A stretch of 60,000 nt of DNA, taken from assembly GCA_044892525.1 (NCBI GenBank), contig CM097885.1:23686001-23746000 (forward strand), given 5' to 3'. A model generated the notes under the pieces. The model had not been told where the DNA came from. It worked only from the letters and a program-made list of their open reading frames with translations, and made no database searches. Each line of letters begins with the position of its first letter. Within the stretch, counting starts at the first letter, position 1. Below are positions 20,068 through 60,000 of this stretch, piece after piece. A program made the translations under genes and the position numbers. Origin of the DNA: Schmidtea polychroa (lineage: Eukaryota).

Positions 20068-20103
<36 letters not shown>

Positions 20104-33039: not shown

Positions 33040-33470
33040 AAGATTTGGGAATATTTTTTAAGAGAAAAGGATGGTTAAAGTGACCAATGTAACATATGTA
33101 ATAAGGAACTCCAAATATTAGGTGGATCAACATGTGGACTCCACACACTTCAAATCAGTACACAAAATTGTACTTGAAAATTTTTCTCCAGCTCCATCTT
33201 CAGACTCTGTGTCGCAGTCGCAGCCTATTCCACTTTGTGAATTCTAAACTAGATTTGGAATCGTTTCAAGCAGTCATATCAAAATTAACAGCAGTGGATA
33301 GAATTTCATTGAGATTTCTAACTAAATCTGAGGAATTGAGAAAATCCCTTAATTCCAGAGGATTTCATGTCCCATCACCTCCTCAAATTATAAGACAGAA
33401 TGTCATGGAATATGCAGAAATGATTAAAAATCAAATTAAATTAGAGTTTTTATATTTAAGAAGAAAGGAG
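33040..33470 (+). pseudogene. 5' part of a BED-finger hAT transposase, cut by the duplication junction
   Basis: Same sequence as 48094-48524, then a switch into piggyBac sequence at 33471. Confidence 0.8.
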
Positions 33471-35123
33471 GCGAGTGGTTTTAGATTTGTGCCAACAACT
33501 TGAAGGGAGGAATGTAACAGTTGACAACTTTTTCACTTCTTATGAACTAGGTCAAATATTACTTTCCAAAAAAAAATACTATGATTGGCACTATTCCAAA
33601 AAATAAAACGTCAATTGCTGGAAGTAAAATGCAAAAAAAAATTAATGTGTTGTCCTTCAGAGTACTTTTCACAAAACAAAAGAATTGTCAGGTGGTTCTG
33701 AAAATAAACCTAATATTATATTAGATTATAATGCAACGAAAGGAGGAGTTGATACCTTAGACAAAATGATAGCAAATTACAGTATTCGAAGAAAAACAAA
33801 TAGATGGCCAATTATTGTTTTTGCAAATATATTAGATATATCTATATCAAATGCATTTATTTTATTTACAGTTGTTTGTCCAGATTGGAATATAAAAAAA
33901 TCGAAAGCGAATCTTCATTGAAACCGTGGGCGAATTATTGATAAAAAGAACAAATGACAAGACGGACCCATTTGTCACGAGCGGATAATTGCGAACAATT
34001 TATGTTAGAACAAAAATGCACAACTACATCTCCTTTAGAAGTACCAACAGCAAGGATACGTGGTCAAAAAATAGGTAGATGTCACATTTGTCCAAAATCG
34101 GACAATAAACATGCATTAGAATATAAATATTGTAAAAGATTTATTTGTAAGGCACATTCCTATAACGTATGTAATAAATGTAATAAATAAATAATAAACA
34201 GATAAATCGCTCTTCAGAGCCGGATCTATGGGGGGGGGGGGTGCAAAGGATGCGATGCACCCGGGCCCCCTCTCAAAAGGGCCCCGCCAAACACTTTTAT
34301 CTTTCCACTTTTTTTTATTTATATTTTTAAAAAAATTGCACTCATTTTCCATTTTTTATAATTTTTTTTTTGACAAAAAATAAAAAAAAGATAAAATTAT
34401 TTTTCCAAAATAGACATTACTTTTTTTCGAAAATGGTTGTTGTAATATTTCTGCAGCTGTATGAAAATATAGCAAAGAAAATTCTTCGATTCAATGTTTA
34501 ATGGGTAGGGAAATTTTTAAATTAGATCTAGCATCACTGTTTGTTGCAAATACGTCAAAATTAAATTATTCCGCCATTTTCAAACAGCAAAAAGCAAAAA
34601 TGTAAATGTGCGTCTGTTTTTTTTACTAAAAATAATTAATTTAAAAAGTGATTTATATTAAAATTATAAAATTACTTGTATTTTGTTTTAAATATTTGTG
34701 CAAAACTACTAACGTTTATTTGATTTGTATTTTTTATATGTACATAAATATTTGTTTTTGAATAGAAGTTTTATATTAATATATTATTTTGTTTGACAAC
34801 AGCCACAATGTAAGCGTGACCTTTTTTTTCTAGAAGAAATAATTAATTTAAAAGCAATATTGGTATATTTCTTTTTAGAAAATTGTTTCCGAACAATGGA
34901 TATCAATTTTATATATCAATATATATGAAGATTTTAAAATATATTGTAAATGATCCATTTATCTACATTAATCTACTTTAACTGAAAACTGTCAAATTAC
35001 TGAAAAGCTACTAAAACATATACATTTATTTTTGAATAATTTTTGAATAGACTTTTTATATTTTATAAACAACAACCAAAATGTAAGTGTTTCTTTTTTA
35101 TTAGAAATAATTTATGTATTTAA

Positions 35124-35154
<31 letters not shown>

Positions 35155-38100
35155 AATTATATATATTTATATTTATATTTATACATATTTATATTAAAAC
35201 TATAAAAATATTTATACATATTTCTTTTTTTAGAAAATATCCCTGGAAAACTACTAATGTATATTAGATTTATAGATATACTAATTTTTGAATAAATTTT
35301 GAATAGTAATTTTAAATTATTTTGCAAACAACCAAAATGTAAGTGTGAGCCTTTTTTACTAGAAATAATGAATTTAAAATATTATTATTTTTCTTTTTAG
35401 AAAATTTGTTTTAGCATTGGGATATCAATTTTATATATCAATATATGTGAAGATTTTAAAATATATTCTAAATGATCCATTGTGAGCCTTTTTTACTAGG
35501 ACTAGGACTATTATAAAATAATTTAAAATTATTTATATTTTACAATCTAAACAACAAAATTATGAAAAGGACTTACTTGTCAGGAGCAGAGAAACGGAAA
35601 ATATCAGAACGCAAGCAAATCGAAGACAAAAAGCAGCGTTTCAGTTTGAAATCGTGGTGTCAAAAAAGTTTAGTTCAAGTAAGGTTCCAGTAAGATACGA
35701 TGAAACAGAAACTCAAAATATTATATCTGTGGATGAATATGAAAATAACAATCATACCATAATAGATTTACCGTCACCGATTAGTATTTCTGTTGAAAAA
35801 AACAAAAACCCTACCACAGACGATTTGGCGACTAGTACCGTGAATGATTATTTGTCAGATAATGAACTTCTGGTATCTCCATATGAAGGCAATAATAATA
35901 ATGTTAGTTTAGATGTAAATACGTTTAGTACTGATCCGAATGATTGGGCATTTCCGACATCTTCTGTTTTTAGATCTGCCGTTATTAAGTTAGGCCCAAA
36001 ACAGATAAGTCTTAAAAACTTTTCAAAGAGTAGTAATGGAAGATCATTTTCCAGTCATTATTTGATGAGAACGTTAGTAAATGGTGAGAAACAAAAACGA
36101 ACTTGGCTTCTTTATTTGACCGTTAGAAATGAAGTGTTTTGCTTTTGTTGTTTCTTGTTTGGAACTGAATCAGAAAAAGAAAATCGTTTCATTAAAGGAT
36201 ACAATAAGTGGCAAAAATTATCAGATATTATCCAAAAGCATGAAACTGGAAGTTTTCATATAAATTGTTTCCTGAAATGGAAAAAATTAGAAGATAATTT
36301 AAAAAATGATAACTACAATTGATCAGCTTCTAATTTCATCAATAAATAAGAGGAAACAAGAACTTATTCAGATTCAAAGCAGAATTTTAGATGCTATTAT
36401 CTTTTTGGCCGAACATAATTTAGCTTTTAGAGGTACTAGCGAAAACATTGGAAGTCCGAAAAATGGTAATTTTTTAGGTTTAATTGAATTTTTAGCCAAA
36501 TATGATACGATACTGAACGATCATCTTGAAAAAATTAAATCTAAAAAAATACATATCCACTACCTTTCTAAGACTATTCAAAATCAGTTTATTGTATTAC
36601 TGGCTAATGAGATATCTAAAAAATAATTTCAAAAGTCAGAGTCCAAACATTTCAGTATTCAAGTAGATTGTACGCCTGATATATCCCATAAGGAACAAAC
36701 TACATTAATTTTAAGATACGTTTTTCAGGATCTCGAAGCAAAACAGTATAAAATAAATGTTTTCTAAATGATTAATATTGCGTCTTGTTGAGTGTGACCA
36801 GTACCCTTGCTAGCAATACCCATAGGGGGACAGAATATTTTCTAGAGGCTTCTGACACAACAGGAGAAGGACTAACTAAATTAATATTATGCGAGCTCGA
36901 AAGAAATGGTATTGAAATTCAAAATTGCAGAGGACAAGCTTATGATAATGGTGCAAACATGAAAGGCAAATACAAAGGAGTCCAAGCAAGAATATGTGAT
37001 TTAAATCATCTTGCGTTATATGTTCCTTGTTTAGTTCATAACTTTAATTTGCTTTTATGCGATGCTGCTTCATCCTCTCTACAGTGTAAGAACTTATTTG
37101 GAAATTTACAACGTCTTCATCCACTAAAAGTTGGGAAATTTTAATAAAATACGTACATATAACATTAAAACCTTTGAGTGAAACTCGTTGGGAGGCCAGA
37201 GTCAGTAAAACCTGTAGTATCTCAATTGCCGCTAATACGTGAAGCTTTAGAAGAACTAGCAGCAACATCAAATGATTCAAAAACAGTTTCATAAGCCAAT
37301 GCTATACTAGATTATATCGTAACAATGCCATTTCTTGTATCATTAATTGTATGGAAAAATATTCTAATTGATATCAATAAAATAAATAAAATGCTACAAG
37401 CAGAAGCAGTAGTTCTGAGTGCAGCTATTGGTTTGGTTGATGCAGTGTTAATAAAACTACAAAACTACCGTTCATCACTTTTCGAGGAAGCTGTTAAAGA
37501 AGCTCAAATCATTGCAGAAACACTAAATGTTTCAACAGATTTTCCGGTGATTCGATTGCGCAAAAGGAAACGGTTATTTGATGAAATTTGTAGCGATGAA
37601 ATGCCAGCTGATCCAGTTTTAAATTTTAAGATTTCATTTTTTCTTCGATTAATAGACATAATTTCATATGAATTAGAAAGCAGATTTGCTGATGCAAAAG
37701 CAATTTGCAGCAAATTTAATTTTTTACTTAATTTAAAAAATATATCAGACGTGCAATTACAAGATTCTTGTAAAGAATTTATATCATTTTATACTGGAGA
37801 TGTATCCACTCATTTAATTTCGGAAATTTTTTTGATAAAAACTTTTATTCCAGCAGAATTCGACAGCAAAAATCTTTTGGATGTTTTAAATTTTTTAACA
37901 CCACAATATTCTGATATATTTCCTAATTTTATAATTGCGTTGCGTATATTTTTAACCTTTTCTGTAACTGTTGCTAGCGCAGAGAGATCATTCAATAAGT
38001 TGAAGCTAATTAAAACTTACCTTCGTTCTACTATGGCTCAAGAAAGATTATCGTCATTGGCGTTATTGTCGATCGAAGTAGATGAAGCAAAATCAATAAC

Positions 38101-38697
38101 TTTTAGTCAATTGATATCTGTTTTTGCGGAAGAAAAGGCAAGGAGGCTTAAATAAGAGTTATGTTTTTCGTATTTTTATTTTGGATTTTTATCTTAAATA
38201 AATTTCTATACTATTTACAAAAGTTCAACAAGTTGCAAATGAATTTTAAGTGCAATTTTTTTTATGTTTTTTTTTCGTTATATATTTTTTTGTTGTTTAA
38301 TTATATTAATATAAATAAATAATTATTTTTTCTCTTAAAAGCTAATTATATTTAAAAAAAATCAAGTATTTTTTTAATAGCTGTGAATAATAAAAGTAAA
38401 TAAATAAATCATGTTATTGTATTAATTAAAACTTATTGTTATTTTATTTTATTAGAAGAATAATTTTTTTTGAATGAATGGAAGAGGGCCCCAAAATCAA
38501 AATCGCTTCTTGCACCTGGGCCCCCAAGTGGCTAGATCCGGCGCTGTCGCTCTTTATTATTCCTAAACAGTCAACTGTTACTAATAAAACTAATTTAATT
38601 ATTTGCATTTTGTTTCTTTTAAGTCAACAATTTCTATCTGGGTCGAAAAAGACCCGAGGGACTTTAGTGTACAGTCAATTTAAGGGACGGATGAAGG
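33469..38697 (+). mobile_element. piggyBac 3' half (no left end), copy 2
   Basis: Starts mid-transposase; right TIR followed by TTAA (38698-38701). Confidence 0.93.
34215..38546 (+). mobile_element. hAT transposon, copy 2 (transposase pseudogene 35562-38155)
   Basis: Same TIRs and TCGCTCTT TSD as copy 1. Confidence 0.95.
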
Positions 38698-39350
38698 TTA
38701 ATAAAATTTGTATTTGAAAATTAATTCATAAAAATTTTGATTTAAAATTTTCATTTCTCCAAAGCCGACTATTATTCAAACTTTTGATAATAAATTTAAA
38801 ATTATTACTTTACTTATTACATTAATTTAAAATTTCTAACTTTAATTTATTTAACTTTAAAATTTAGCCTTAAATTGAATTAATTTAACCCTTTATTTAC
38901 CAAATATAGGCATTGATTTACTTAATTTTAAAATTTATAACTTAATTTATCTATTTAACCAATAATTTCACGTGGTTATCTGGTAGTAAGTACTTGGTTG
39001 TTAATACTTAGTAGCTGATAGTTGGTATCTATTTGTAAATACTTAGTTGTTAGTATTTGGTATTTATTTGTGGATATCTAGCTAGTTGTTAGTTAGTTGT
39101 TGAATTATTATTACTATTATTATTAGCAAAATTTGCATTTAAATTTCTCTTTGAAAATTATTTCATAAAAATTTCCATTTAAAATGGCTCTTTTTGTATT
39201 GAAAATTCCAGAAAAAAAGCGTAGCACATTGAGCAATTACGGAACCGTTACGCAAAAAACAATAACAGGAGCAATGGCCCCTTTGGGGGGACCCCACCGG
39301 ATGGTCTGCTCCATGGAGTTACTAACTACCAATTATAATGATACGATTTT

Positions 39351-40262
39351 CTATATTAAACTCCACTGAAGACAAGTTAGAAGGTTAATATAATTATCTT
39401 GATAATATACAGCCAGTGCCTTTTTCTTCTCCAATAAACGTTCTAGCACATAAAACATAGAATCCCATCTCGTTGGAACGTAATTTATCAAGCAATGTAT
39501 GGGATATGGGTTGCCTGCTGCATCTTGTTGGAATGATTTATGAATCCGTTCAAGTAAACCATTAGCTATAGACGAATGTAGGAAATGTCTTACAATTTTA
39601 CGAGACAACGAAATTACATCTGTGATCCCTGGTGCGATTTTAGACCAACATTTATTACTAACTGAATCATATGGATATAATACCCAAGATCCGCCATTCT
39701 CGAAACACTAGCAGCCTTGACCATACTGAATCCATTATCTCTTACAAGCAAACCACGCATTCTCACATGAATTTTAAATTCTTCTAGCAAACTCAATATT
39801 GTATTACCGATCAGTTCCCCGGTATGCCTTCCGTTAACACTTCGCATTGCCAATACAACGAATTTTCGCTCCCATTTCTCGTTGATCTGATGCGCTGTTA
39901 AAGATAGAAATGAATTCAAATTATCAGTTGTTGTCCACATATCAGAAGTAAAACATATCACTCTTTATCATACATGAGGCCATTAAAAAACAGAAGTTTT
40001 CTTAACTTCTCAACAAAAAAAGGTCCCAATATTCTTTAGTAGATTCGTTTATAAGAATTATATAAAAACGGTAAATATAATGTTCAATATGCTCACAAAA
40101 CATCTATTTTACTATATAGATAAAAAAGAAGGCTTATGCCTTTATTTTGAATAGTCTTATTAGAAACACCATTCGTATGTCTTTTTGCCAAAGTCCGAAT
40201 AGTGAAAAAATTGGAAACTTCGGCCCGATTCAAAGTCCGAATCGAGTTTCGGCTAGTCCTTA
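39351..40262 (-). mobile_element. Truncated ZBED-like hAT relic, copy 2
   Basis: Duplicate of 24297-25208. Confidence 0.8.
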
Positions 40263-40994
40263 GCTTTCACCTTCCACCTGTCGTCCTAAAATTGTACCTA
40301 ATGCTAAATTACTGCCATCAGTCATTACGATAAAAAATTTTTTAAATATGGACATCTCAATAATTAAAACATCCGACATAAAAAATGTTTTGCAACTTGG
40401 GCAGCATATTTGTAGTTACAGTTGTAAAACTTCTGTAGATAGTGAGAATAGTTTTTCATGTTTTTCACATTATTATAATTTTAAAGTGAAACTGGCATAA
40501 CTTGGAATTTTTCAACACTTATTTATTTTTTATTTTAAAAATTAACATTAATATCAATTATTCATAAATGCAAAATTTTTCGACAAAAATGCAAAATTTT
40601 CAATTTTAATGCAAATTATTCTTTGTCCTAGATATTAACCTGTTAATTTCAAACAGTTTGATATTTATGAAATAATAAAAATCTCCGACAATAAAATCAT
40701 TGTAATTTCCTTTATTTTCATTTGCTTTCAGACAATGAGGCACCAATGAGAAAATACATGTAAGCGTTTTTGATAATGACGTAATATACATACTTTTGAA
40801 TAACCTTTTCCGACATAATTAATTTCTTGTGGCGTCAAAAACGTTTTGCACAGGAGCGCTTCTCGCCTATGGCACGGGACTTCTTTCAGGTTATAAAACA
40901 ATATTTTGATTTATATTTAACACCCATAACCTTTTATAGCAACCTAAAGGAAAACTGCCAAAACTCATGTTAAATACAAAATAAAATACTGATC

Positions 40995-41361
40995 GGTACT
41001 TCCGTGTTATCTTACCCCCAAAAATTAAATTATAAAATACAATTAAAATAATAATATAAAAAATGAAAGAATACATTATTGATGACGTTATTGAACATTA
41101 TTGAACATGAATTTATTAAGGCTATCTGTGATTTATGTGATTATGTGAGTTTATGTGGCGCAAACGTGTTCTAAGCAACATTGCCGATGTGTTCGACACT
41201 ATTCTCAAAGACATTGTGGTTTTCTGGCCACCTGGATGACCATTTACAAACTCTTTACAAACATTTGCTGAGTTTGTAACTGTGATTTAGAAAATAAATA
41301 TAATAATTATGTGTGTTCTTTTTTAATTTAATTTTTGGGGGTAAGATAACACGGAAGTACC
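40995..41361. mobile_element. Merlin-like MITE, copy 2
   Basis: Same TIR and TACTGATC TSD. Confidence 0.85.
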
Positions 41362-41538
41362 TACTGATCTTTAGTGTGAAGAACTGAAGATAAAGAAAAG
41401 AGAAATTGAAAATGAACTAACTTTAATTGAAAACATTATAATAGAAATTTGAACAAAATTTTACAAATAAATAAATCTGCATAATTTTCCAAAGATTATT
41501 CTTCCAGAAATTTGGAAAATATACAAATTATATTTTTA

Positions 41539-42609
41539 TCAAGCTCTTCTTTCTATATTTTTCTGCGTCATCTGAATAACTCGCTTGTAAACACTAAAGC
41601 AGTAAGACTGGGACAGGTAAATTCCATAAAAGCTGATAATAAAAGAAGTTAAAGCAACAAAAATTAACACAAGCTCAACGACTTCAAGTATGATTAGATT
41701 ATAGTTAAAAAGTTGAATTCCAAGGAAATAATTTTCCAATTTCTCTTTGCATGTTGGATGAATAACACTACGAAGCTTTTTTCTACATACAGTGACTGGC
41801 GTATTTTCCTTACAGCATTGTATTGGTATCAAAGACTTGTTGAATTTACGAATTATGTCCTTGTATGACTTGGCTCCACAGCATTCGAATACCGCCGAGC
41901 CAATGGCAATTACGTTGGTTAACTGATCGAAAGCCGTCACAACTTCATCATAAGTGACGTTTTGAAAATTACAAACCGTACACTTTGTAACTTCAAAAAA
42001 ACTATATAATTCTACAATAACCTGATTACTGATCCAACTTATTTTATTCTTAAAATTAAAAGAAAACTCTAAAATGCTACAGCCAAGTACAAACGCACTG
42101 GCACCGAAAATGAAAATAAAAATCATACTTTGCACCTCATAAGCAATAATTCCCACAAAACAACTAAAGAGGCTTCCTAAACCAAAAGCGATGTAATATT
42201 TCCCAATCCAAACAAAAGATCTCATGGAAGATCTTATTAAATATTGACAAATAATCTTAACAGTTTTATTTCTTCCAATTTGATTTTCGAGATTCGGCTG
42301 GTTAAAATGTTTCAATATCGGTTGAGGTTTAGGAATGGTCTTTAAGTTTTGCCTTTCGACGTTGAGCCTAATTCCTAAGATGACTTCATTTTTGCTGTTT
42401 AAACTAATATTATTTTTGATAATATATGACAATATTTCTTTTGTCACCAGTTTATAAGCGTTGACAGTAAAAATGTCGTTTAATGTAAAAATGACAAATC
42501 CGAATGCTAGAATGGCAATTGCAAATATTACGAGGAGAATTTGAAGAAATACTGCTAAATTCGCAAAAATATAAATTAATTTCAAAATCGAAGAGGGAGG
42601 ATATTTCAT
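41539..42609 (-). CDS. Intronless tetraspanin-family protein, copy 2
   Basis: Protein identical to copy 1. Confidence 0.88.
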   Translation of the reverse strand: MKYPPSSILKLIYIFANLAVFLQILLVIFAIAILAFGFVIFTLNDIFTVNAYKLVTKEILSYIIKNNISLNSKNEVILGIRLNVERQNLKTIPKPQPILKHFNQPNLENQIGRNKTVKIICQYLIRSSMRSFVWIGKYYIAFGLGSLFSCFVGIIAYEVQSMIFIFIFGASAFVLGCSILEFSFNFKNKISWISNQVIVELYSFFEVTKCTVCNFQNVTYDEVVTAFDQLTNVIAIGSAVFECCGAKSYKDIIRKFNKSLIPIQCCKENTPVTVCRKKLRSVIHPTCKEKLENYFLGIQLFNYNLIILEVVELVLIFVALTSFIISFYGIYLSQSYCFSVYKRVIQMTQKNIERRA

Positions 42610-43176
42610 TCCTATAAATTATTCATTTAAATTTTAAATATTCAATAATTATTTATTTAACAAGGTAATAATGTTTACATTAACAAACACATGCAGATAA
42701 GGTCTAAGTTAGGGAGTAGTATAGTGTGGACGGCGGCCTGGGCCACTTTTATCTAGTTATCATGTGGCTTGTTAAATGGGTTTTTGTTAAAGTGCATCTT
42801 TTTTCAAAAAAAATCTGATGTTATTTTTTAAAATGTGTTATGTTTAAATGCATCGTTTTAAATAGATATTTCGCGCTTTATTTAAATATGTTTATATTTA
42901 ATTAAGTTTTGTAGAGATAAATTTATTTTCAATTAATTAATTCTTTATTTCAAATTAGTTTCTTGTGTAAGAGAGTGTCAATGCTTGAATGGTTTTTATG
43001 CGGGTTGCATGTTTTCCCTGGTCTTTACATTTTTATTTTATATGTTATGTGAGCCTAATTGGTTTAAATACCTCTAAACTAGCTTACTCAGGACCTGCAC
43101 ATAAAATTCAAATTTTGAGGGGAATGACATTTTCCAAATAAAATTTTTACAAATACTCGAAATGGCAGGTAACAGA

Positions 43177-46100
43177 AGTTAAATCCGTCTTTAGATCCAT
43201 ATTTAAATTTCGCAGAAAAATCTTGAAACTAACAATATATATTTATTCAAAGAATTTATAAATAACAAGTTTTATTTAATTCACAAAAACCGCCAATTCC
43301 AAATTATTAAAACAACAAGATATCTAACTCTCCCCTTCTTAAGACTTTTTCCACTTCTTCAGCCACTCGATTCTTCTTTCTTTCGTTCCTTTTTGTGAAT
43401 GTAGTTCGACTCGATGAGGTGATAGAAATCTGGCGATTTTATATGGGCCATCGTATTGCAAGCCATCTTTGTGCCTGTTCTGCGGCTCTTTACGTACGAG
43501 TACCTCCTCCCCCACCTCGAAAACACGAGTGCCCCTCTTTGTCTTATCCATAGCTCTCATAGTGTCTGCGGCTTTACTCGAGTTAAATCTCGTGTCTTCG
43601 ATTTTTTCGCTTCTTGATATCTCGGCTTGTTTCAGGTTAGAGTGTAGGTTAACACTCCGTCCATAAATTATCTCAAATGGTGATAAACCTGTAGCACTTT
43701 GTCGACTGCTATTTATAGTGAACTCTATTCTGGGTAGAAGTTCGTGCCAGTTTCTCTCTTCACATCCGCCTGCCAATGTTGCTGTAATAAGATCTCTTAT
43801 CGTTCGTATGGCTCTTTCGGGTAAACCATTTGATTGGTGCTGATAAGGTGAGCTGAATTCCTGTTTGATTCCAAGTTTCTGTAGCTTCTGTCTTAGGAAA
43901 TTCCTTTCAAAATTTCGGCCTCTATCTGTTAAAATACTCTTCGGTTTTCCAAATCGATAGATCCAACTATTAGGTATTGTTTTGAAAATGGTCACTTCGT
44001 TTTGCTTTGTGATTGCAGTTAAAGAAATCAGTTTGCTAAAACGGTCCACCATTACTACCATATATTTTTTTTGGCGTTTATTTCCATGTAAGCCACATCT
44101 ATAACAATCTGTTCTAGGAATTCAGAGCTATATCTAGGAATAAATGTTTCCTTGGTTCTTGTCTGATCGATCTTTCTCTTAGCGCAGATCTCGCAACATT
44201 GTAAACAGAGTTGGATTGTTTCTTGCATTTTCGGCCAATAAAATATCTTTTCCATATAATGAAATAATTTCTTAACTCCAATGTGACATAGTTCTTCATG
44301 TAGCGTTGTTGTTAACAGGCCTGCAAATGTTTCTGGGACTAACATTAAGATATTTTTGTTCTTTTCTACTGTTATTAATCCTCCATCAATTTGTGTATTT
44401 TTTACGTTAAAAGGAAAACAATTCTTTTTCTCCCGTGTACATCCATTTTCCAATATCTCTCGCAGCTCTCGAAACCGAATGTCCTTTTGTTGTTGTTCCC
44501 ATACTTTTTCCATAGCTTCTGTTCTTTGGATAGTATATATATAATCTTTGATTTTCCTTCCTTAGCTTCTTCATGTCTTGTTTGACACTGGGTGCAAACC
44601 ATACTTTTTAATTTTGATAGTCCATCTGCATTCGAGTGTTCTTCGCCTTTCCGATATTTTAGTTCAAAATCATATTCCGACAGGTTAGCTAACCATGTTT
44701 GGAATTGCGGACTGATTGGCGTTTTTGTAGTGTTCATGAAAACCAATGCCTTGTGGTCGGTGCAAATTATGAATTTTTCCCCGTACAGATATTCTCTAAA
44801 ATGCATGACGTATTCATGTACGGCGAGCAGTTCTTTCCTGGTTACACAGTATCCCTTTTCATGTGATGACATATGTCTCGAGCCATAAGCTATGGCAGAT
44901 TCTTCTCCATCTTCTGTAATTTGACTCAAAACTGCACCAATGGCTCCGAAACTAGCGTCTGTGTCTAAGATAAAAGTCCTATCTTCTCTTGGAAAATCAA
45001 GGATAGGTGCTTCGCACAACCGTCTCTTCAGAGTTTGGAAGCTCTCATTGCATTCTTTAGTCCAATGTATATCTTTATCGCATCCAGATGTTGCAGCGTA
45101 TAATGGTTGGGCGATTTTGGCATAGTCTTTGATGAATCTTCTATAGTAGTTCGTTAATCTGAGAAAAACGATCTCAATTGTTTTGAACATTTTGGTACTT
45201 CTGCTTTCTCGATCTCTTCCACTTTCTTCCTGTTAGTCTGGATACCCTTCTCGTTAATTGTGTGACCAAGGAAACACAATTATGTTTTATTGAATTTGCA
45301 TTTTTCTGGATTTATCTTCAGTCCTGCCACTTGAATTCTTCTGAATATTTCCCTTAATAGCTCATAGTGGTCTTTTTGACTTTTACCATATACCAAGATA
45401 TCATCTAGATAAACTACTACTCCCTTGAATAGCATTCTTTCTAGCACTGTGTGCATCAGTCTCTGGAATGTCGCAGGAGCTGTTGCTAAGCCAAATGGTA
45501 GTCTATTGAAGCAAAATTGTCCTTCTCTTGTACTGAATGCAGTCATTTCTTGAACTTCTGGAGCCAACTCCACTTGATAATACGCCTGACCTCAATCGAT
45601 TGACGAAAATATTTTTGCATTCGCGAGACAGTCTAGTAAGAATTTGGTGTTAGGCATAGGAAATGACTCTGTTATGGAATTTAATCCACGATAATCTACA
45701 CACATCCTAATAGATCCATCTTTCTTCCCTACTATCACTAACAGGGCATTCCAAGGACTCTTGCAACACCGAATAACATTAGCTTTCATTAAAGCTTTTA
45801 ACAGTTCTTCAATCCTTTTCTCCATGTGCATCGGTTGACGTCGAGGATGTTGCATTATTGAGCCTCCTGTTATCCGCATCTCATGTCGAACTAAGTTTGT
45901 AAACCCCAGATCGAATTTCGATGCCATAAAAATTCCGCCGTATTCCTTGATCATTCCTTCAATATCTTTATTATTCTCACCTGCCATCGCCACTAGTGTT
46001 TTATTTATTCTTTCTTCATCAGTGTAAATTTTGTTTATCAATGACGTTTCTATATTATTGATTTTCATTAACTTTACTCCAAACTCTTTCATTGTATCAA

Positions 46101-47860
46101 TGCCCCATATGAATTCGGGTTTGATCTCTTTTACCACTACTACTGTGATTATTTTGGTCTTCTGATTCCACGTGGCCGGTATAGTCATGTATCCCATTGC
46201 TTCTTCACCTCCAGTTGAAAAAACTCCGCACAATAATATCATACTACGTTTAAGTTCTGGTTTGCCTATTTTCTCCCACAAATTCTTGCTCATGACTGTT
46301 ACTGATGCTCCAGAATCCCATAACATCTCTGTTTCGGCATTATTCAACACTATTTTACTCCAATTTCTTCCAACTTTCGTCTGGTACATCTCTTCTTCTG
46401 CCTCGTCTCTTCGTCGTTCATTTCTTATTTCACAATTTATTGTCTTGACTCCACCGACGAAATGAAACCCATGGAGTCGCTGATGTTTTTTCCGTCTTCT
46501 TTCAATATAGTATATTTCTCAGGGACATTGTATCTATCTTCCATATTGCTGTGATTCATTCTGAAATCCTGGCTGTTCTCGGTGTAATCTCCTGTTTCAG
46601 ATTTTGAATCTTCTTCTTCTATGCACGCTATTCTTTGATATCGGTGTGGAACATCTTTCCGTAACGAAAAACAATCTCGGAACCCGTGTTCTTCCTTGCC
46701 ACATATCAGGCATTTATTTCCCAGTGGACACTCATACCTTCTATGTCCCCTTTCGCTACAGCAAAAACAATCACCTACCGTTAATTTTGGGACCGATGCT
46801 TGTGGTAGTCCCCTACTTTCGTTGTACAGCCTCCTTGCAATATTCTTCATGAATATTGTTGGCAGCTTCCTTTCTGAGCTATTCGGGATTCTCGTATTTC
46901 TCAAGAATTGTTCTCTTGGAGATTGTTCTCGACGACCATGGTTATTTCCTTCGTATTGTATTGGTCCGCGTATAGGATGTTCGTCTCTTCTTGATCTGTT
47001 GTGACTAAATGGGTCTTCTGATAGTCTTCTTTGTGGTGATGTAGGCATGGGATCTTGGGTATTCTTTTGAATTCTCATCTTCCCTCCCTCAGTCACGCTA
47101 GCGTATGTTCTTTGACCGATTGCTTTAATAAATTCTGTTTTATGGTTTCCGTTTTTGTTACTTTCAAAGATTTTCGCCAATGATCTCGTTTATTCAATTT
47201 TTGTTTCTGGTTTCGTCAATAGTATCTCCCTCAGTCTCGCATCGCGTGCTTTATTTGTGATGAGGTCTTGAACAATATCTTCTTCTGATCGTCCTGAATT
47301 TACAATTTCAGCAAAAGCTTTTCTTAGCCGTATCTCAAAAGCTGCAAACCGTTCATCATCTTCCTGTTCCAAAGCTGCCAATTCTCTGATTTTGTCAGTT
47401 ATTGATTTTGTAATTGTGAACGTATTTAAGAACCACGCTTTGACTTTTACATCTGTTATTTCTGTTTGTTTGACGTTTCCCCACAATGTCTTTGCTTCTG
47501 CCACTAATAACACATCGGGAGTGCTTGTCAATCGTTGCATATTTATCAGCAACCATTCTTATATATCCCTGATCCAATCTTCGGCTTCTTTTAAACCTCG
47601 TCCATCATATCGTCTGATGTTCAGTGTGAGCATGTCATGGCATGATTTCGGTAGGCATTCCATTAGCGATTTTGTCGATTTCGAAATGGCGCTGATATTT
47701 TGATTTTCGGCGTGGTCGCCAGTTAAATCAGTCTTTAGATCCATCTTTAAATTTCGCAGAAAAATCTTGAAACTAACAATATATATTTATTCAAAGAATT
47801 TATAAATAACAAGTTTTACTTAATTCACAAAAAACCGCCAATTCCAAATTATTAAAAACT
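43177..47860 (-). mobile_element. Ty3/Gypsy LTR retrotransposon, copy 2
   Basis: Same LTRs, ACAGA TSD and fragmented gag-pol (43339-47744). Confidence 0.95.
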
Positions 47861-48093
47861 ACAGAAAATTTTCCTTTAAAATGTGAAGTTGCAATTTCAT
47901 TGCAGAATATTATTTAAATATGTAAATGTAATTAGTCTAATCGATAAATATTAAATAAAAATTATTTCGGTAAAATAATAAACTCTTTTCTATTGTAAAA
48001 TATATTATAAAATTATATAAAAATTTAAATTAATTTCAGAAAAATAACTGAAAACAAAGTACAAGTTTTTGAAAAATACAATTTAAATAAAAT

Positions 48094-50500: not shown

Positions 50501-51844
50501 TTAATATAGTTGCTCCACAGTCACTGCATTTTTTCAGTTAACTATTATGTTTTTGACTTCTAAACATTTGATTTTATTTATATTTTATACTTAATGGCAC
50601 CATATTTTTTTGTTACCAATTTGTTATTTGTTTTGGTTAACATTTTTAAAAATGAAATTGGAAATGAATAAAATATTTACATTTACAATATTTTAAGTGT
50701 GTAATGTACAATGTTAATTTTTTTTGGAGTTCAACAAGAGAGGTACAAAATGAGGTAAAAAATCAATAAAAACACCAAATTCACAATAGTAATTTAAGGT
50801 ACAAAAATATTAATTAAAAATCAAAAAATTTTTAAAATGAATATTTTTCGGAGGAAACTGGTATGACCGGCTGCCTAACAATGAGACGAGTTCAACTATA
50901 ATAAAATAAAATCAGTGGGGAGGTCCCTAGAAGGAATTAATTACAAAAAACTAAAATTAATTAAAAATTAATTAGCCAATGGGAAACCCGAGACAACAGA
51001 AAATTCGAGCGAATTGAGAGAACCTGAATGGTCAATCAAATTATTAGAGGCAATTAAATTAGCCCATAAATAATTAAATTGGGGCAAGCCATCAAAGGAG
51101 ACGAGCAAATTCCTCAAAGTAATTAGAGCGACAAGAGGAAGCCCGGGGGAAATTGGATTCGAAATAATTTGACACAGTAAAATCAAATTAAGAGAAGGGT
51201 ATAAAAGCGACCGGCAAGTTAACAGAATTGCCAGTAGGTCGAAGAAACATAAATTAATAGTTTAGCGAAAGTATTAAAAGGAAAAATTGAACTTAGTGAT
51301 AACTGAATATTTTCGAATCGAGCGTACCAGAAAGGGACATCTCCCGTTGGAAGATTAATCCCTGCGCAAGGTTTACATTGGTATTGAAAAGTGCAGACCA
51401 AAGAGTTGTTTAAAGTGTGGTTGTTTCAATAAAGAGTGTAATCAAAGTGTATTGTATTAGTATCGAATAAAGATTTTGCGTTGGGTTGTTTAACTTAATT
51501 TCAAAAAGAACACAAAGGAGTCAGATCGGGATACCGACTTGCACAAAATACCCAACATATTTGGTGAGCCCGAAAATTTGTTGAGATTGGGAAAGTATTG
51601 TAAAGTGATATAAGAAAAATATATATTGAAGTAGAAAATTTGATTTAAACGTGGTGAATATTATTCGAGAATTGTTAAAGTAGTGATATTGTTTTTGAAG
51701 TGAAAAAAATTGTGGAAATTGATTATTGGAAAGTCAAAATAAAAACGAAAGGTAAATTTTGTAATTGTAAATTTTATGCGAATGAAACCTGTGTTGACCC
51801 GATCATTTTTTAAATTGAGAAGCCAAAAATTAGTAGAGAATATA

Positions 51845-52622
51845 ATGAGCACCCAAAGACAAGCCAATAATACAAATAACAATGATGAAACACCAGTGTC
51901 CACGGTGGGCAACAGCAAGGAAGGCAATGATTATGCGAGTTGTCAAAAACTACCTGTAGATCAGCACGGAGGAGATCCGCTGGAATTTGTCGACTTCATG
52001 GCTGATTATTATATGTATGCGACAGCCTATGGATGGAGCCAATCGATAATGTTGCAAATTTTACAGCTATACCTGAAAAGAGCAGCCAGAGAAGCATGGC
52101 AGTAAAATTGATAAAAGATTAGTAGCAAATGACTGGACAAAGTTGAATGATGCACTAGCGGCGAAATTAATCGGAGGAGATATAAAAAGGATAATGCGGC
52201 AGAAATTCAATAACCGCGTATAAAAGTAAGTTTGTTTGCTCATCATTTATCAACTCTTGCAGAGAAAACATTCGAAGTGAAACGAGAATAGGTCGAGGTG
52301 GCAAAGCAAGTAAAGAAGTTATTACAGGATCAATTTTTGTCGGGAGTAAAGAAAGAAATTAAAAAGGTTTTGTGTTACGTTGATTTTAATGACTAATGAA
52401 TTTATTTAAAATGCAATGAAAATTGAGCTGAATTTAAAAAGCACAGTGTTAAAATCAGAGTCATTTGCAGTCATTTCAGGCGCAAGTGAAAGATCAATAA
52501 CTCCAGTTAAAAACAATCAGATCCAACAAGCAAGTATTCCATCACAAAAATTTAGATCAAAATTTGAGTCGAACAAGTCAACAGATATTCAAATAGATAG
52601 AAAAGAAGGTCCTATCCAATGA
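51845..52622 (+). pseudogene. Retrotransposon gag-like, disrupted
   Basis: GDPLEFVDFMADYYMYATAYGWSQSIMLQILQLYLKRAAREAW capsid-like motif and later LLQDQFLSGV; stops and frameshifts. Confidence 0.75.
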
Positions 52623-52959
52623 AGAACCTATCCAAATGTTCACCATAATAAGAAATTTGTAAATGAAGTTAGCAAACGAAGTTGAGCTGTCACCGAAAGA
52701 AGAATATCATCTTTATGTGACCAAGGGTACGGTAAAAGTACTGAGGAATAACAATGAAGTATGGTGGTAACTAAGAAAATTTACGTCTTGGAAGTTGCAG
52801 AAAGACTTCATGTGGCAAATATTACGAGTGGGTGAAGTACCATAGATGCATTCGAGTGAAGGAGAAGACCCAATGTTATTGAAGATTTCGAAAGATATGC
52901 TGAAAAAGAAAATGTCTTTTCTCAGAAAAGAAATGAATCTAGAAGAAATCCCCAATAGA

Positions 52960-53422
52960 ATACTATTTATCGATGCGGAATATGGCACTTCAGAACAAAG
53001 AAAATGGTTCTTTTGGCGGTAGCGATCATGAACTATTATAGAAAAATAATAAAGGACGTATACCTGACTCCAGGGGAAAGATTTCGACATTTCAACTCGA
53101 GAATCCACAGAAAAAACAGAAGTGGCTAGCAGGAAACAATGCGATCAATAGGTTTTAACAAAGGACATTCAACAGCTGACAGTGGGTAAGATATTGGTAG
53201 GCCATGATCTACATGCAGAACTGCAATATTTGAGGATATGAATTGAGCAATTGTATGGTATTCGTGATTTAGCAGCAGCACCAATACTGCAGAACATGTG
53301 AGTAACCATAAGAGTAGAATAGTTTAAATTACAAACACTGGTAAAAGAAATGTGAAGAAGAGACTCAAATTGACATACATTCAGCTCTCCAGAACGTGAA
53401 AAGTGTTCGCAAAGTATACCAG
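52960..53422 (+). pseudogene. DEDDh 3'-5' exonuclease (REXO4/ISG20-like), decayed
   Basis: Across frameshifts: ILFIDAEYG / LLAVAIMNYYRKIIKDVYLTP..FNSRIH / GKILVGHDLHAELQYL..GIRDLA..FKLQTLVKEM / QIDIHSALQNVKSVRKVY. Confidence 0.8.
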
Positions 53423-53864
53423 AGAGTGGGAAACCAAAGGATTGACGACATACCAATACCAAAAAATTAACCATCAAAGAGATATTCCTTCGAGAAATGG
53501 CATCAACATCGACTACAATACCAGAGAAATTGACACAAATTTCAGTTGAAGAAATTGATTTAACAATCGAAGAGAATGTGACGATGGAGATTGAAAATTC
53601 ATTACTTCCATTGAATTGGGTCACCGAATCGTTTTTGGAAATTTCGGAAGAATCTGTCGCATTATTGGCAAGTGTTTCGATAGTAAGGATACATCCGACA
53701 TTTGAATATGGCCCAATGCCCGAAGGCCGAAAAGCTAAGAAGAGAAAAAATACTTCAAACATTGATGTTTGAGATATTGTGAAAGTCAATGGTGTAATAT
53801 ATGAACAAGAAGAAACCATAATACGATATCGACATGAAACCAAACGATTGAAAATAAAAATGGA

Positions 53865-56800
53865 CTAAATTATATATATATATATCATCCCTTCCAGCGG
53901 ATCAACAACCCCATTTAACTCTAAGGGGCAAACCATAGTTATTGGTCTCAATAACTCTTTTCCTTTACTAAGTATTTTTAACACTCGGACGTGTCCATCT
54001 TCGCCGGGACAGACTTCCACTACTCCCCCAAGCTTCCACACCTTCTTACACAATCCATCCTCCAGTACCCATATCAAATCTCCGGACTTTAAATCCTTCC
54101 CATCCTTTGCCCATCTTTTTCGGCCCCTCCGTCCGATCACAATCTCTTGTTTCCATCGTCTCCAAAATTTCTCGATTAGGTCTTGAATCAGCTTCCATCT
54201 CTTTTTTATCCCTGTTCCCATTAGTTCTGTCTCTTCCTTGATAAACCTCTTGTAACCTGGCTTGATGAAATGGTTCGGTGTCAACACTTCTTCTTCCTCC
54301 GTATCTTCACTAACAGTTGTCAACGGTCTACTATTCACCATTTCTTCCGCCTTCAGAATGACAGTTTGCAGCTCCTCATCCGTCAATTCAGCAGCTCCAG
54401 CAATTGCTAATAAAGCATTTTTTGCTTCTTTTACTAGTATCTCGAAAACTCCTCCAAAGTGGGTTGCACTAGGCGGGTTGAAGATTCACTTTATTCTGTC
54501 ATTTTTGAGACCACTTTGGATTGAATACGTATCAATCTCCACTTTCCCAATTTCACTAGCTGCCCTTACAAAATTTGTTCCATTGTCAGAAATTATTAAC
54601 AAGGGGGTTCCGCGACGTGCAATGAATCTTTTGAATGCAATAAGTTCCTCGGCCCTCATTCCCCTTGATAGAAAATCTGCGACGTTTTCCTTCGTAGGCA
54701 AATACCTCCACTGTGAGCTCCTTGTCGAACGCTGAATTTCCGCGACCCTGTTCGCCACAAATACTTTACAATTACGACCTAATTGCGTTATCCAATACAA
54801 GACGTCTTCACTATTCGTCCAGAAGATGATGTCTTGGATATTCGTCTTCCAACATTGAGATATCTTAAGCCCCAATCTCATCCCTAATTCTGCTGCCAAC
54901 AGCTCCAGGCATGGAATGCTCACTACTTTGATCAGCGCTACTCTAGATTTAGCCGCGATTAGGTTCGTCCTTACTCTTTCCTCTTGACTCTCCCTGACGT
55001 AAGTTACGGCCCCATATGCGCATTTTGACGCATCAACAAATATGTGAATCTTCGACTCACTATTTACGTCTCTAATTAAACATCTTTCGCATCTGACTTC
55101 ATTTAAAATTGGAAATTCCTTCAACCAGCTCTAGAACTTTCTCCATAAATCTTGTGGTAATAAGTCATCCCAATCCATACCCGCTAACCAAATCTCTTGC
55201 ATCAACAGCTTACCCCTGATCAGAAAACTTCTGCTAAACCCAAAGAGTCAAATATCCTCGCTAAGCAACTCAAAAATCCCCGTTTCGAGAGCCATTATTG
55301 GGTTGGTAGTTTGACATCGTAACTAAATTTATCCTCTGCCGCAATCCAAACGAGTCCAAGAGTTTTTACTGCTACCTGGTTTCCATCGTTCAAGCTTAGG
55401 AGCTTTGATCTCCTTTCCACAGGAATCGTTTCTAACACCCTTTTTTCATTGGTGAGCCACTTGTTAGTTAGCATTCCTGCATGTTCCCAGATATCAATTA
55501 TTTCGTCCTTGACCCTAATTGCTTCCTCCGCCGACTGAAAGGAATCCATTGTATCATCCATGTACGTGGACTCTATTATTGTTTCCGCCGCTATTGGAAA
55601 CTTCGCCTGAAACTTCTCAGCGTTCTGCCTCGTGAGCAACTGTGACAGAAACGGAGATATGTTTAGTCCGAAGACTAGTCTTTCGAATTCAAATCCCTCA
55701 GTTTCTCCATTTTCAGCCCACATAAACCTTAAATATTTCCTATCATCCGGGTTCACCTTTATCTGTAAATACATCTCTTGTATATCATAAGCAATCGCTA
55801 CAGGATATCTTCTGAATCGCAATAATATCTCGAAGAGATCATTTTGTAGCTTTGGGCTTTGTTCTATGGCATCATTTAAATTGAGACCATTGTTTTTCGC
55901 TGCTGCATCAAAAACTATTCTAATCTTGGTTGTTTCCTTGTTCATCTTTATCACAGGAAAATGTTGCAACCAACACTTCGTCTCACAAAATTCCTTCTCC
56001 GCTAATAACCTGATATACCTTTTTCGCACATAGTCATTAAGTCCTTTTAACCGATTGTCCTTCTTTAAACACTTGTCTAGACTTCTCAAACGATTCTCAG
56101 CCATTTTTAAATTACCTTGAAGTTGATACTTGTTCTCCTTCCATAAAAACTAACCGTAAATCGCCCATCTTCGCGCGACATCCCTTTGATCGCCTTTTGC
56201 ATTAACATTAATTCATTTTGGCTAAATTGATTCTTTTCAACGTACGTCTCCTCAATTTCCCAAAATTGCCGCATCTGATTTTCCAATCTCTCTGTTTTCG
56301 AGAAATAACTCTGCAAAAGATGCGAATGCCGAGGAGATTCTTCATTACTGATTTTGACAAGGCATGTCCATCCCAGACCTACTACTTCTCGAATCGATCA
56401 ATGCAAGTGTGGATAATCTGCACCGATCAAACATCTATATGTGGCCTTTTCCCCAGCACTGGGAATCGAACATCTTTTAGGTGATTCCAATTACCGGCCC
56501 TTTGCCAATTAAAGATCTTGGAATCACTAGTGATTTCTTTGACCACCAGGACGTCAAAGTCCATCTTCACTTTATTATTGTCACTCGCCAGCATAACTCT
56601 TACCGGTTTTGCCACTAACATCTCAGTCTTTCCCTCAATCACACCAATTTCCATTGTCCTTTAACATCTAATTTCTCCGCGGCCCAATCGCTAATTAAAC
56701 TTACGTTGCTTGCGTCATCAAGCAGCGCATTCACACGCACTTCTCTACCATCTCTAATCAACTAAACTGAATCGTCCTCAAAGGGACATACTTCTTTTCA

Positions 56801-57080
56801 CACCGTTCTTCTCGAAAAGTCACCATTGACGTGTTTTTATTTGGCGTCTTCATTTGACTATCCTCAGCTTTGCAATCTGAATCATACAAAAGGAAATGAT
56901 GCTTTGCTTTGCAACTTTTATCCTTACAGAAGCTGGACCTCTCGCAGTTCCTGACGAAGTGGCCTCCAGCTAAAAAGTTTAAAAAAAGTCTTAATTCTTT
57001 AACAAGCTCGCTTCGTACTGCTACTTTCATTTTTAAAAGTTCCGGACATTGGTTCAAGTAATGTTCCGATCCACATTTGA
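53865..57080 (-). mobile_element. BEL/Pao LTR retrotransposon relic
   Basis: BEL gag zinc knuckles; protease ALLDDAS; RT KIRIVFDAA..STYMDD; Pao RNase H HIFVDASKCAYGAV..FVANRV; integrase SDNGTNF..VNSRPL; C-terminal FWRRWKQE region. Confidence 0.93.
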
Positions 57081-57123
57081 CAAATTTTGATAAAAGAATT
57101 AATGAAATTACCCACCAACTAGT

Positions 57124-57355
57124 TCATAAAGTAGTAGGATAAAAATTAATTATCTGGTTAAATTTAACGAAATGTGATAACCAACAAGATCTCAATTCCT
57201 GAAATTAAACCATGTCAAAGTTATAAAAGAAATTACTTGCCGAACGATGCTGAAGTTGAAGCCACTCACTACCACTACGGTTAGGGATTGCTAGGGACCA
57301 GATACAAATCTAGGACGCATAGCGATACCCCTCCAATAATAAGTCTGAGTGGCAT
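57124..57355 (-). pseudogene. Two-exon hydrophobic peptide relic, positional counterpart of 13229-13512
   Basis: MPLRLIIGGVSLCVL.../..TVVVVSGFNFSIVRQ, then a 38-nt GTAATT..TTCAG intron (57236-57199), then ELRSCWLSHFVKFNQIINFYPTTL*; needs a frameshift. Confidence 0.35.
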
Positions 57356-57846: not shown

Positions 57847-58122
57847 ATGCCTAATAGAACTCGAAAACCCGAACAAGCAGCCCTTCATCCTCTGCGTCGG
57901 ACCTCAGAGAAATCCAAGAGGGGGTAGATGAAGCCTCCAGGCTGGGCATAGAAGAAGAGATTACCCGCCTAAGGTCCCGGTGGATCTGGTATAAGATCCA
58001 CGATTGGACTTACCAGAATGTGGTTCCGGTGGTCCCAAAAGCAGAACCCTCAATCAATGCTACCTCCCTCGCTCTAATCGAAGCCTTCGAGAATGTTGAG
58101 GAAGCCGTGGATCGGTTGCAAC
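57847..58122 (+). pseudogene. Homolog of the 13905 ORF, interrupted by a hAT insertion
   Basis: ITRLRSRWIWYKIHDW versus ITRLRTRYIWYHIHRW (12/16 identical); AFENVEEAVDRL versus AAWDVEAAQMRL; frameshift near the start. Confidence 0.75.
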
Positions 58123-60000
58123 TAGGGTTGTTAAACGAAAATCGGAAATCCGATTTTCGATTTTGAAAACGATTATCGGTTTCTTTATTTCACAAAACGA
58201 TAATCGGTTTGTCTTTTACATATTATACAGATAAATTGAATGCCGGGAATTTAATTTTGTTCATTGTTTACTACTGTATCCATTCAATTTTACCGACAGA
58301 AAGGGGCAGTTTTTTTCAACTCGTCAAAACTCCTTACAACGTGTTTGTACATGAGTCAATCTTTTCAATTATCCCATTCCTGTAACAACGGCAAGAGGTT
58401 GCTCTAGTATTCCAACATATCTCACTGACTGACCAGTTATTTGTCAGTTGATGTCCGTAATCGGCAACCGCTGATTTGTTTTATACAGCCCCTGACAGGT
58501 ACTGTGCCCATTAAATCTTTTAATCGGGACCAGCTAAGGCCAAGGTTGTGGTTGTGTGTTTTAGTATTTGCATTTTGCCGGTTTTGTTTGGCAACCTGAT
58601 ATTTGTTGCCGAAATCGGCCACCAAAGATTTGATTACTGCAGTCCATAACAGAAGCTTATCTATTAACCCCTTTGACAGGGACTAGATGTGGCGAGGTCG
58701 GCGATTTTGTGTTTAGTCTGTGAAGGTCTATTTTGCAATCTGATATCTTGCATCTGCGAACCGGTTAAAAGTTTATTCTGGTTTTAACTTAAAACCAGAA
58801 TAAACTGAATTGCATACCGCATCATCTTCATGAAAGCCAGATGTAAAGAGATCGAAAGACATGTGCCATTCCTCGAATAATAATGTTTGGTTGTTTACCC
58901 ATTGAAATATGGAAGAGAGTTGGACACTAGGACAAACTTCAAGTTTGGGTGACGACCATTCTCAAATTTATTCAGTTTGTTGATCTTTTGACAATGTCTA
59001 AGAGGCTGCTCAGGTCGAAGTAAATTGATTTTCGGGATTTTAATTTATGACAAGATTTTGGAAAGTCCAATCCATGGTTCAAATCTACTATAAACATATA
59101 AACTGTTATATAATTTCCATTCATTCAGTTAGTTGCTCTCGTAGTAGCTGTTATTAATCCATATAATTGAAAATTGCGGTTTAGTTTGAATATTACGTAA
59201 TATTCAATAAACATTTTTTATATTATCTAAATCAATACAAAATCAGTTTAAATTTATGGGTTTCCGTATAAATAAGTCTGACGTCTGGGACAATTTTGAT
59301 AAAATTTCGGCGACGATGCACAATGTAAGCTCTGTGCACAGCAAATAAGTAGAAGTGGAGGTACTACGACTGGTTTGCATGCACATTTGCATAGCAAACA
59401 TGGTATATTAACAACATCTTCAAATACTCAAACACGATTGACTGCATTGATTACAACACAAAGAAATTGTCCGAGTAGTAAACAGGAAAAAATTACGGCT
59501 GCTGTTGCGAGATTGATTTCCGAAAATATGTTGGCAATTTCGCTCGTGGAATCGAAATCCTTCCGTGAATTGATGGCGATAGTGGAGCCAGGATATCGTC
59601 CTCCGTGTCGTCAGACGATGACAGCACGACTAACAGCAATGAAAAATAATTTAGTGGTCAAAATGTCGAAATATATCCATGAAAATGTCAAGGACATTGC
59701 GATCACTACCGACATCTGGACTAGTGTCACCAATGAAGCTTATCTCAGTTTTACTGCAAGCTACATTGATACAGACTGGAATATGATGACGCCTGTTCTT
59801 GGAACAATTCTGATGACTCAACGCCACACACAAGCCGTCATTGCTGACCATCTATGTAGTATAGCTGATGAATGGTCAATAAAAGAAAAAATTGTTGCAT
59901 GTGTCCATGATGGTGCATCCAACATCAATCATGCAGGCAATCTCAATGGATGGTTTGACGTTCACTGTGCGGCGCATAAATTGCAACTTTGCATCAATAA
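58123..60000 (+). mobile_element. hAT (ZBED1-like) transposon, left part; runs off the window
   Basis: TAGGGTTGTTAAACG terminus with AATCGG/CCGATT subterminal motifs; preceded by the 8-mer GTTGCAAC (candidate TSD). Confidence 0.8.
59256..60000 (+). pseudogene. ZBED1-like hAT transposase, frameshifted, incomplete at the window edge
   Basis: SDVWDNF..AQCKLC..GGTTTGLHAHLHSKH BED finger; IAITTDIWTS; VHDGASN; HCAAHKLQLCI. Confidence 0.9.

Follow-up and report, generated by a model that had tools for sequence, protein, structure and literature searches.

The closest described counterparts of the locus reported here are the rotifer LTR elements Juno and Vesta, whose third open reading frame (ORF3) encodes an RNase D-like exonuclease of the DEDDy class (Rodriguez, Kenefick and Arkhipova, 2017, PMC5408684; cited also in PMC5718144 and PMC6338049). 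According to the same paper, ORF3 is usually made via a spliced subgenomic message, shows a DEED variant of the motif and has been proposed to act in silencing or in the processing of RNA 3' ends, its activity being unproven; the term DEDDh is absent from the portion of that paper available to us. It also lists Maelstrom and EXD1 as catalytically dead DEDD proteins of piRNA pathways. The initial annotation of our locus had mentioned DEDD-type additions in nematode and rotifer LTR elements: the rotifer half stands, as DEDDy, and the literature search, over sources available in part, found none for nematodes. In planarians, the gypsy elements Burro/GYPSM1 carry ankyrin, BIR, MATH, SUMO-like, BCL2 and Env domains and reach 30 kb (PMC6431247); their description in section 7 of that article places Env between gag and pol and names no exonuclease or cupin. 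Among RNA viruses, the DEDDh domain of arenavirus NP serves immune suppression, and the nidovirus nsp14 ExoN tracks genome size and tolerates D or E at ExoII (PMC7968707, Fig. S1 legend). The accessible parts of PMC8532177, PMC10123124, PMC13269885 and PMC554778 held nothing on element-encoded DEDDh nucleases. Within our literature search the family described below is unreported; Repbase and the primary Burro paper (Grohme 2018) lay outside its scope, and a Repbase annotation may exist.

The window, that is, the whole 60,000-nucleotide stretch of Schmidtea polychroa DNA that was analyzed, contains the following features around the nuclease:

50700..51557, + strand, stretch resembling the 5' LTR of a Ty3/gypsy element, its 5' end placed approximately (motifs, read depth)
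51562-51572, + strand, primer-binding-site-like (PBS-like) TGGTGAGCCCG, right after the LTR-like end (sequence)
51845..52621, + strand, gag, decayed by stops and frameshifts, cut just before the first zinc knuckle (tblastn with P0170)
52611..52638, + strand, deletion junction where gag meets the nuclease gene, with near-duplicated CCTATCCAA(A)TG on either side
52622..52950, + strand, N-terminal double-stranded beta-helix (DSBH; AlkB/cupin-fold) domain, 5'-truncated (family profile)
52951..53458, + strand, DEDDh 3'-5' exonuclease domain, ISG20/ISG20L2/REXO4-like, broken (colinear profile matches)
52969-52983, + strand, ExoI motif IDAEY (read from sequence)
53185-53223, + strand, ExoII motif GKILVGHDLHAEL (read from sequence)
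53260-53274, + strand, IRDLA motif (read from sequence)
53378-53395, + strand, ExoIII motif HSALQN (read from sequence)
53459..53868, + strand, low-complexity tail with the family's C-terminal G-x-x-F/Y...I-x-Y motif and a stop at its end
53865..57330, - strand, decayed, unrelated BEL/Pao element (DUF5641, Peptidase_A17, RVT_1), adjoining the stop of the nuclease gene at a TA microsatellite

The LTR-like stretch contains TATAAA at 51200 and AATAAA at 51428 and 51466, and ends in ...CCCAACA. Over 50748-51569, summed contig depth in run X1 reaches 2e4-2e5, compared with about 70 in the flank. As there is a single LTR-like stretch and no repeat pair, the LTR call rests on the PBS, the TATA and polyA motifs and the read depth. 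A second LTR copy was not found in the window, nor was a 3' LTR of either the gypsy remnant or the BEL/Pao element. The PBS-like TGGTGAGCCCG may resemble the 3' end of tRNA-Trp; the window itself yielded no tRNA gene. The gag remnant aligned with P0170 (tblastn 45% over 161 aa, E 1e-30), a protein with three CCHC knuckles that matches PF00098 (zf-CCHC) and PF03732 (Retrotrans_gag, E 8.5e-5, just under the cut-off). The window element thus has the PBS and the Retrotrans_gag/CCHC-type gag of Ty3/gypsy; it is without pol and without 3' LTR, and the PR-RT-RH-IN order was seen only in the relative L001. P0171, another member of the gag family with 52-57% identity to the gag of the window, carries a DTW-domain sequence (PF03942, E 3.5e-26) upstream of gag and in frame with it, which suggests that a host gene was captured at the 5' end of gag or that gene prediction produced the fusion.

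Elsewhere, the window shows two nearly identical tandem copies (approximately 18000-33000 and 33000-48000) that repeat at about 15054 bp; the duplication may be real or an assembly artefact. Within the copies lie hAT-like remnants, an ORF for a tetraspanin (PF00335) and a further gypsy element in decay. A large foldback at 5505-12639 has 2379-nt arms of 100% complementarity, plus further arm pairs. Short ORFs within 13821-14959 and at 57858-58166 gave no reliable Pfam match; by eye, 13821-14264 and 57858-58166 have an LRxRxIWYxIH-like motif in common.

The motifs of the nuclease were all found as the initial annotation had read them, in canonical order, intronless and on the + strand like the LTR, PBS and gag, and they are spread across three frames. 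The frame is broken, as had also been stated: the main frame (52702-53418) contains 13 stops, 7 of them within in-frame pieces. The catalytic residues are D-E at ExoI, E at ExoII and H...N at ExoIII, so the Asp positions of ExoII and ExoIII do read E and N. With its three frames, its stops and its ExoIII Asn, the window copy is not an intact DEDDh exonuclease but a dead pseudogene. The whole gene extends over about 52622-53868, N-terminal domain and tail included, and exceeds the span first noted; the initial annotation covered neither of these two parts, nor the dead paralogs.

The broken pieces matched 0 Pfam families and no nuclease, and a PDB search with the broken frame reached ISG20 at E 1.3 only; the ankyrin-like and TyrRS matches of that search were dismissed as chance. 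A profile built from 44 relatives, the window copy excluded, scored 79.8 bits on the region, and none of 200 shuffles exceeded 7.8. The homolog P0005 matched PF00929 (E 2.6e-6). The profile matched the window colinearly at positions 71-205, 207-244, 247-328 and 321-360, the finer matches over the nuclease domain being 175-205, 207-244, 247-328 and 321-360. For the tail, the corresponding profile gave the sole domain listed in the window, at the expected place and not significant (i-E 6); by eye, the tail resembles those of P0028 and A1.

P0005 was the one relative (E 4e-8) returned among 289 candidates by a protein search with the stop-masked window frame. As a query, it gave 8 proteins among 3329 candidates, and 839 proteins at E<=0.001 against the full HMMER library, the best 150 of which were listed. 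Close relatives are stand-alone ORFs, mostly of 350-680 aa, in which an N-terminal domain of about 170 residues is followed by the nuclease and by a variable disordered tail, so that homologs carry both domains together. PF00929 was matched by 26/41 family members. No family row carries a CCHC knuckle, and two YxDD-like matches in the nuclease region are chance. Searches with P0005 in metagenomes, with A1 and P0170 in viral contigs, and with A1 in prokaryote genomes found no locus.

Among solved structures, the family profile matched ISG20L2 best (E 1.4e-31), followed by ISG20 (5e-21), SDN1 (6.4e-18) and PAN2 (3.6e-5). The nuclease model of P0023, a natural protein (pLDDT 93.5), superimposed on ISG20 with Z 18.5 and rmsd 2.2 over 161 residues, with weaker matches to PAN2 (Z 15.0) and RNase D (Z 9.1). 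The best profile and structure match is therefore ISG20/ISG20L2, as membership in the REXO4/ISG20 group requires, and the class first proposed for this nuclease was borne out. Since Foldseek E-values place PAN2 marginally ahead of ISG20L2, we name the donor ISG20/REXO4-like and do not fix it further. The RNase D/DEDDy class was rejected on the ExoIII His of the live family and on the Z scores (9.1 for RNase D vs 18.5 for ISG20). A search of the ESM Atlas with P0023 gave generic PF00929 clusters only.

The N-terminal domain of the window copy was recognized by profile positions 71-205, which match 52654-52995 (E 3.8e-16 for 75-205), with an internal gap of about 20 residues; its fold is taken from intact relatives. 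The model of this domain from P0025 (pLDDT 79.9) resembled the DSBH proteins Ofd2 (Z 9.6), ALKBH1 (9.1) and ALKBH6 (9.1), as well as a small cupin (8.8) and pirin (8.6), all tied within one unit. AlkB and other 2OG-Fe(II) dioxygenases bind iron through an H-x-D...H triad. This triad is absent from the N-terminal domain of 41 family members, in which residues 1-170 show only one His column (38/41) and one strongly conserved Glu column (36/41). An active AlkB dioxygenase was rejected on this ground, and we infer a module that is non-catalytic or binds a single metal at most. Searches with this domain gave leads under 0.9 only in the ESM Atlas and, in BFVD, cupins and plant-virus replicase regions at E of about 1e-4, which are unspecific.

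A tree of the nuclease core was computed from 144 of 159 rows, 15 being dropped for short coverage; the window pieces had been excluded beforehand, along with 11 sequences that were cluster-mates or near-duplicates (P0009, P0013-P0022). In this unrooted, quick-search tree, 64 family rows (the window copy and two duplicates beside 61 distinct relatives) are separated by a branch of 0.86 with an SH-aLRT of 99 from 80 rows that we take, by their motifs, to be REXO4-like. A 62-row repeat gave the same split, the separating branch being 0.86-0.97 across both trees, which are without a named ISG20, PAN2 or REXO1 outgroup. The window copy thus does not fall among host REXO4-like orthologs. It belongs to a 49-row subclade with a support of 95 in the 144-row tree, not starred in the 62-row repeat.

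Among the distinct live relatives of this subclade, ExoII is acidic in 32/32, with Glu in 25 and Asp in 7, and ExoIII has its Asp in all 29 that cover the site; 15 further rows have lost the catalytic set. The ExoII Glu is therefore a family trait and was rejected as a sign of decay, and the ExoIII Asn occurs in the window copy only. At the level of the family, the ExoI D-x-E, the acidic ExoII, the ExoIII H-x4-D and the RNase H-like fold of a DEDDh nuclease are all present. The relatives are under purifying selection: between L003 and L005, dN is 0.14 and dS 1.35 in the nuclease, and 0.15 and 3.4 in the N-terminal domain. L001 and L004 are saturated at synonymous sites (pN 0.22), and L005 contains one in-frame stop.

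The genomic context of the relatives comes from a metagenome scan, which retained 6 loci out of 37 pattern matches (L001-L006); L006 is an ordinary REXO4-like gene. L001, of 11.5 kb, and L002, 99.9% identical to it, amount to one independent element, the only one in which pol and nuclease were seen together. Its coding features are:

L001:3-7109, giant gypsy polyprotein, open, at least 2368 aa
L001 7268-8743, dead nuclease paralog, after the polyprotein
L001 9043-10374, live nuclease ORF, after the dead paralog (PF00929 E 1.5e-11)
L002:5956-6576, small ORF past the nuclease genes, its C-terminus weakly similar to ubiquitin/SUMO (E 0.04-0.1)

The polyprotein contains protease, RT and RNase H as well as integrase, a further protease-like domain and ankyrin repeats, and L001 has three more ORFs besides it. 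At least one extra aspartyl-protease-like domain lies past the integrase, in a long C-terminal region that ends, by eye, in a hydrophobic, membrane-like stretch. The N-half of the small ORF looks by eye like a TFIIS N-terminal domain, which we take as an assumption. A relative of the nuclease that the initial annotation had assigned to an LTR retrotransposon lies, in L001, inside an LTR-type element. The dead paralog of L001 falls within the 49-row subclade of the window copy (144-row tree), and the live one in another subclade, at about 30% identity. L004 retains the dead-then-live pair (E 9e-8). As most of the 61 relatives have no context, some of them could be host genes or lie in other elements. 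In 3/6 ATGs examined, a pyrimidine tract and an AG precede the start codon, which is consistent with spliced subgenomic messages. Between the dead and live ORFs, a tandem unit of about 90-106 nt (L001:8767-8958, L002:3817-4008, L004:401) with a core GGAGGC...CGCCC, also kept in L004, is a possible cis-acting element; Rfam gave no match on L002-L005.

At the gag/nuclease junction, 7 contigs of run X5 diverge from the window at 52621 and read, in the gag frame and by hand, as the start of a C-x2-C-x4-H knuckle. Just past the same position, the match enters the nuclease profile at about its position 53-71, which means that the nuclease gene has lost its first 50-70 residues. As gag loses its knuckles and the nuclease its N-terminus at 52621, the adjacency of the two is the product of a deletion that cut both. 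Judging from L001, this deletion would also have taken pol, and we infer that in the lineage of the window element, too, the order was pol, then nuclease. The junction is spanned by two contigs at about single-copy depth (X1 record 6, 70.6 vs 52.6 for the flank contig; X3 record 13, 22.7 vs 15.4), and is therefore real DNA but peculiar to this locus. A comparable rotifer derivative, TelKA2n, is without the gag C-terminus and most of pol (PMC5408684). A native place downstream of gag, as implied by the initial annotation, is not supported: in L001 the gene is a separate ORF past pol, and gag-DEDDh-pol is probably wrong as a native order.

Four runs of the host species were covered through their Logan contigs. 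In three runs, the median summed depth over the nuclease is 38-58x the first flank bin, and that over gag is 5.3-6.6x that over the nuclease, summed contig depth being no copy number. The nuclease stretch is many-copy in the host runs, and the deeper gag indicates many gag-bearing copies without nuclease or with a more diverged one. These many copies and the 61 distinct relatives in a group of their own uphold an acquisition at the level of a lineage, as first suggested. Contigs of run X8, guessed to be RNA, cover the nuclease region without demonstrating transcription. No contig was found that joins the gag family of the window to the nuclease family within one intact element.

Like rotifer ORF3, the family provides an exonuclease of the DnaQ superfamily as a separate ORF past pol (here in L001/L002 only) and includes a DEED variant; unlike it, as far as the available part of its description goes, the family is DEDDh, closest to ISG20L2/ISG20, with His instead of Tyr at ExoIII, and has an N-terminal DSBH domain and tandem dead paralogs. 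With human ISG20 (1wlj), ISG20L2 (7yw5) and REXO4 it shares fold, motif order, the GHDL-type ExoII and the H-x4-D ExoIII, but it differs from them in the fused AlkB/cupin-fold domain, the frequent ExoII Glu, its long-branched separate grouping, its many copies and its mobile-element context. L001 recalls Burro in its giant polyprotein with ankyrin repeats after pol and in its accessory ORFs, compared by description only; from the Burro domain string (MATH, BCL2, Env, BIR, ankyrin), L001/L002 show the ankyrins, plus the weak ubiquitin-like ORF. We thus call the L001 polyprotein Burro-like by description alone and assign neither L001 nor the window element to Burro. The arenavirus NP and nidovirus nsp14 nucleases, as partly described in PMC7968707, offer a functional analogy only: they are likewise cell-derived DEDDh nucleases in RNA-based parasites, with other donors and fused partners, and with zinc fingers of which none was seen here.

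Taken as a whole, anatomy and origin are in our opinion likely to be those of a deleted Ty3/gypsy copy with a captured, barrel-fused DEDDh nuclease as an accessory ORF. The window would hold a dead, internally deleted copy of a multi-copy LTR retrotransposon, whose intact form would most likely read LTR-PBS-gag-pol-(accessory ORFs)-LTR. The accessory ORF 3' of pol, probably expressed from a spliced subgenomic mRNA, would encode the AlkB/cupin-fold domain and the exonuclease. The nuclease would have been captured long ago from the eukaryotic REXO4/ISG20 family and then fused to the barrel domain; as it diversified along with its elements, live DEDD-h and DEED-h forms would have arisen, as well as paralogs that are catalytically dead.

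Another history would keep the nuclease between gag and pol, a short deletion having taken away the knuckles of gag together with the N-terminus of the nuclease, and a BEL fragment having replaced the pol side. Everything past 53868 in the window is indeed BEL sequence, and odd orders occur, as with the Env of Burro (PMC6431247, section 7). Nevertheless, the nuclease comes after pol in L001, no match to the L001 polyprotein was found in the 149-1672 bases downstream of the nuclease ORF in L002-L005, and family proteins are stand-alone ORFs without a CCHC knuckle, which makes this order improbable. Barely less improbable is a chimera, in which LTR-gag and nuclease gene would stem from two repeat families joined here by recombination or template switching. 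The single-copy depth of the junction, the greater depth of gag and the near-repeat on both sides would fit such an event, but both parts lie on the same strand, the loss of the gag 3' and ORF 5' ends is typical of an internal deletion, and a derivative of such a kind is known in TelKA2n (PMC5408684). Since the nuclease family is borne by an LTR element in L001 anyway, a chimera would change the carrier element, not the identity of the gene. An intronless and decayed gene could also suggest that host REXO4 entered the element a single time, as a processed pseudogene. We rejected this, as it is extremely improbable for a many-copy sequence that includes a domain which REXO4-like proteins lack, and that the long branch (SH-aLRT 99) places with the family in both the 144-row and the 62-row trees.

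Regarding function, we lean, tentatively and at slightly below even chances, towards a cytoplasmic RNase that would remove or trim element-derived RNA, such as small-RNA or double-stranded by-products, and so blunt host silencing. The barrel domain would bind nucleic acid without being catalytic, and the dead paralog would serve as a decoy or as a binding partner. This role is ranked first because the nearest relatives of solved structure act in RNA turnover, a nuclease that degrades small RNAs being among them, because the gene is separate from pol, because dead paralogs persist, as Maelstrom and EXD1 do (PMC5408684), and because arenaviruses use a DEDDh domain in immune suppression (PMC7968707). 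Ranked second, and rather unlikely, is a role in replication, either in 3'-end processing of genomic RNA, of the tRNA primer or of cDNA ends, or in editing for an error-prone RT; it would help very long elements to persist, as ExoN does in nidoviruses. The great length of L001, with its polyprotein of at least 2368 aa and three more ORFs, that of Burro-type elements (PMC6431247), and the nidovirus ExoN with its link to genome size and its D/E tolerance (PMC7968707) would suit this role. An ORF separate from pol leaves packaging into the particle unassured, though, dead paralogs persist, the closest solved relatives act in RNA turnover, and many gag copies seem to lack the nuclease. The remaining share may go to host manipulation or to a neutral passenger.

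Beyond silencing evasion as such, a bolder and rather doubtful proposal is that giant gypsy-like elements carry a two-gene RNA counter-defence cassette, in which a live AlkB/cupin-fold and ISG20-like RNase and its dead twin would together destroy piRNA/siRNA or dsRNA directed against the element, the target RNA being possibly recognized via modified bases. If true, a retrotransposon would thereby encode an enzyme that suppresses small-RNA silencing in animals.

The DEDDh capture is an independent one, because the rotifer LTR elements, as described in the available text, carry a DEDDy ORF3 of another class, and its architecture, with DSBH fusion and live/dead pairs, is new within the literature searched. 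With it, LTR retrotransposons of animals have taken up a 3'-5' exonuclease a second time and independently, from a class other than that of the rotifer ORF3. As intact natural proteins exist (L001 9043-10374, P0006, P0023), the question of why RNA-based parasites keep exonucleases, whether for silencing evasion or for long-genome replication fidelity, becomes directly testable.
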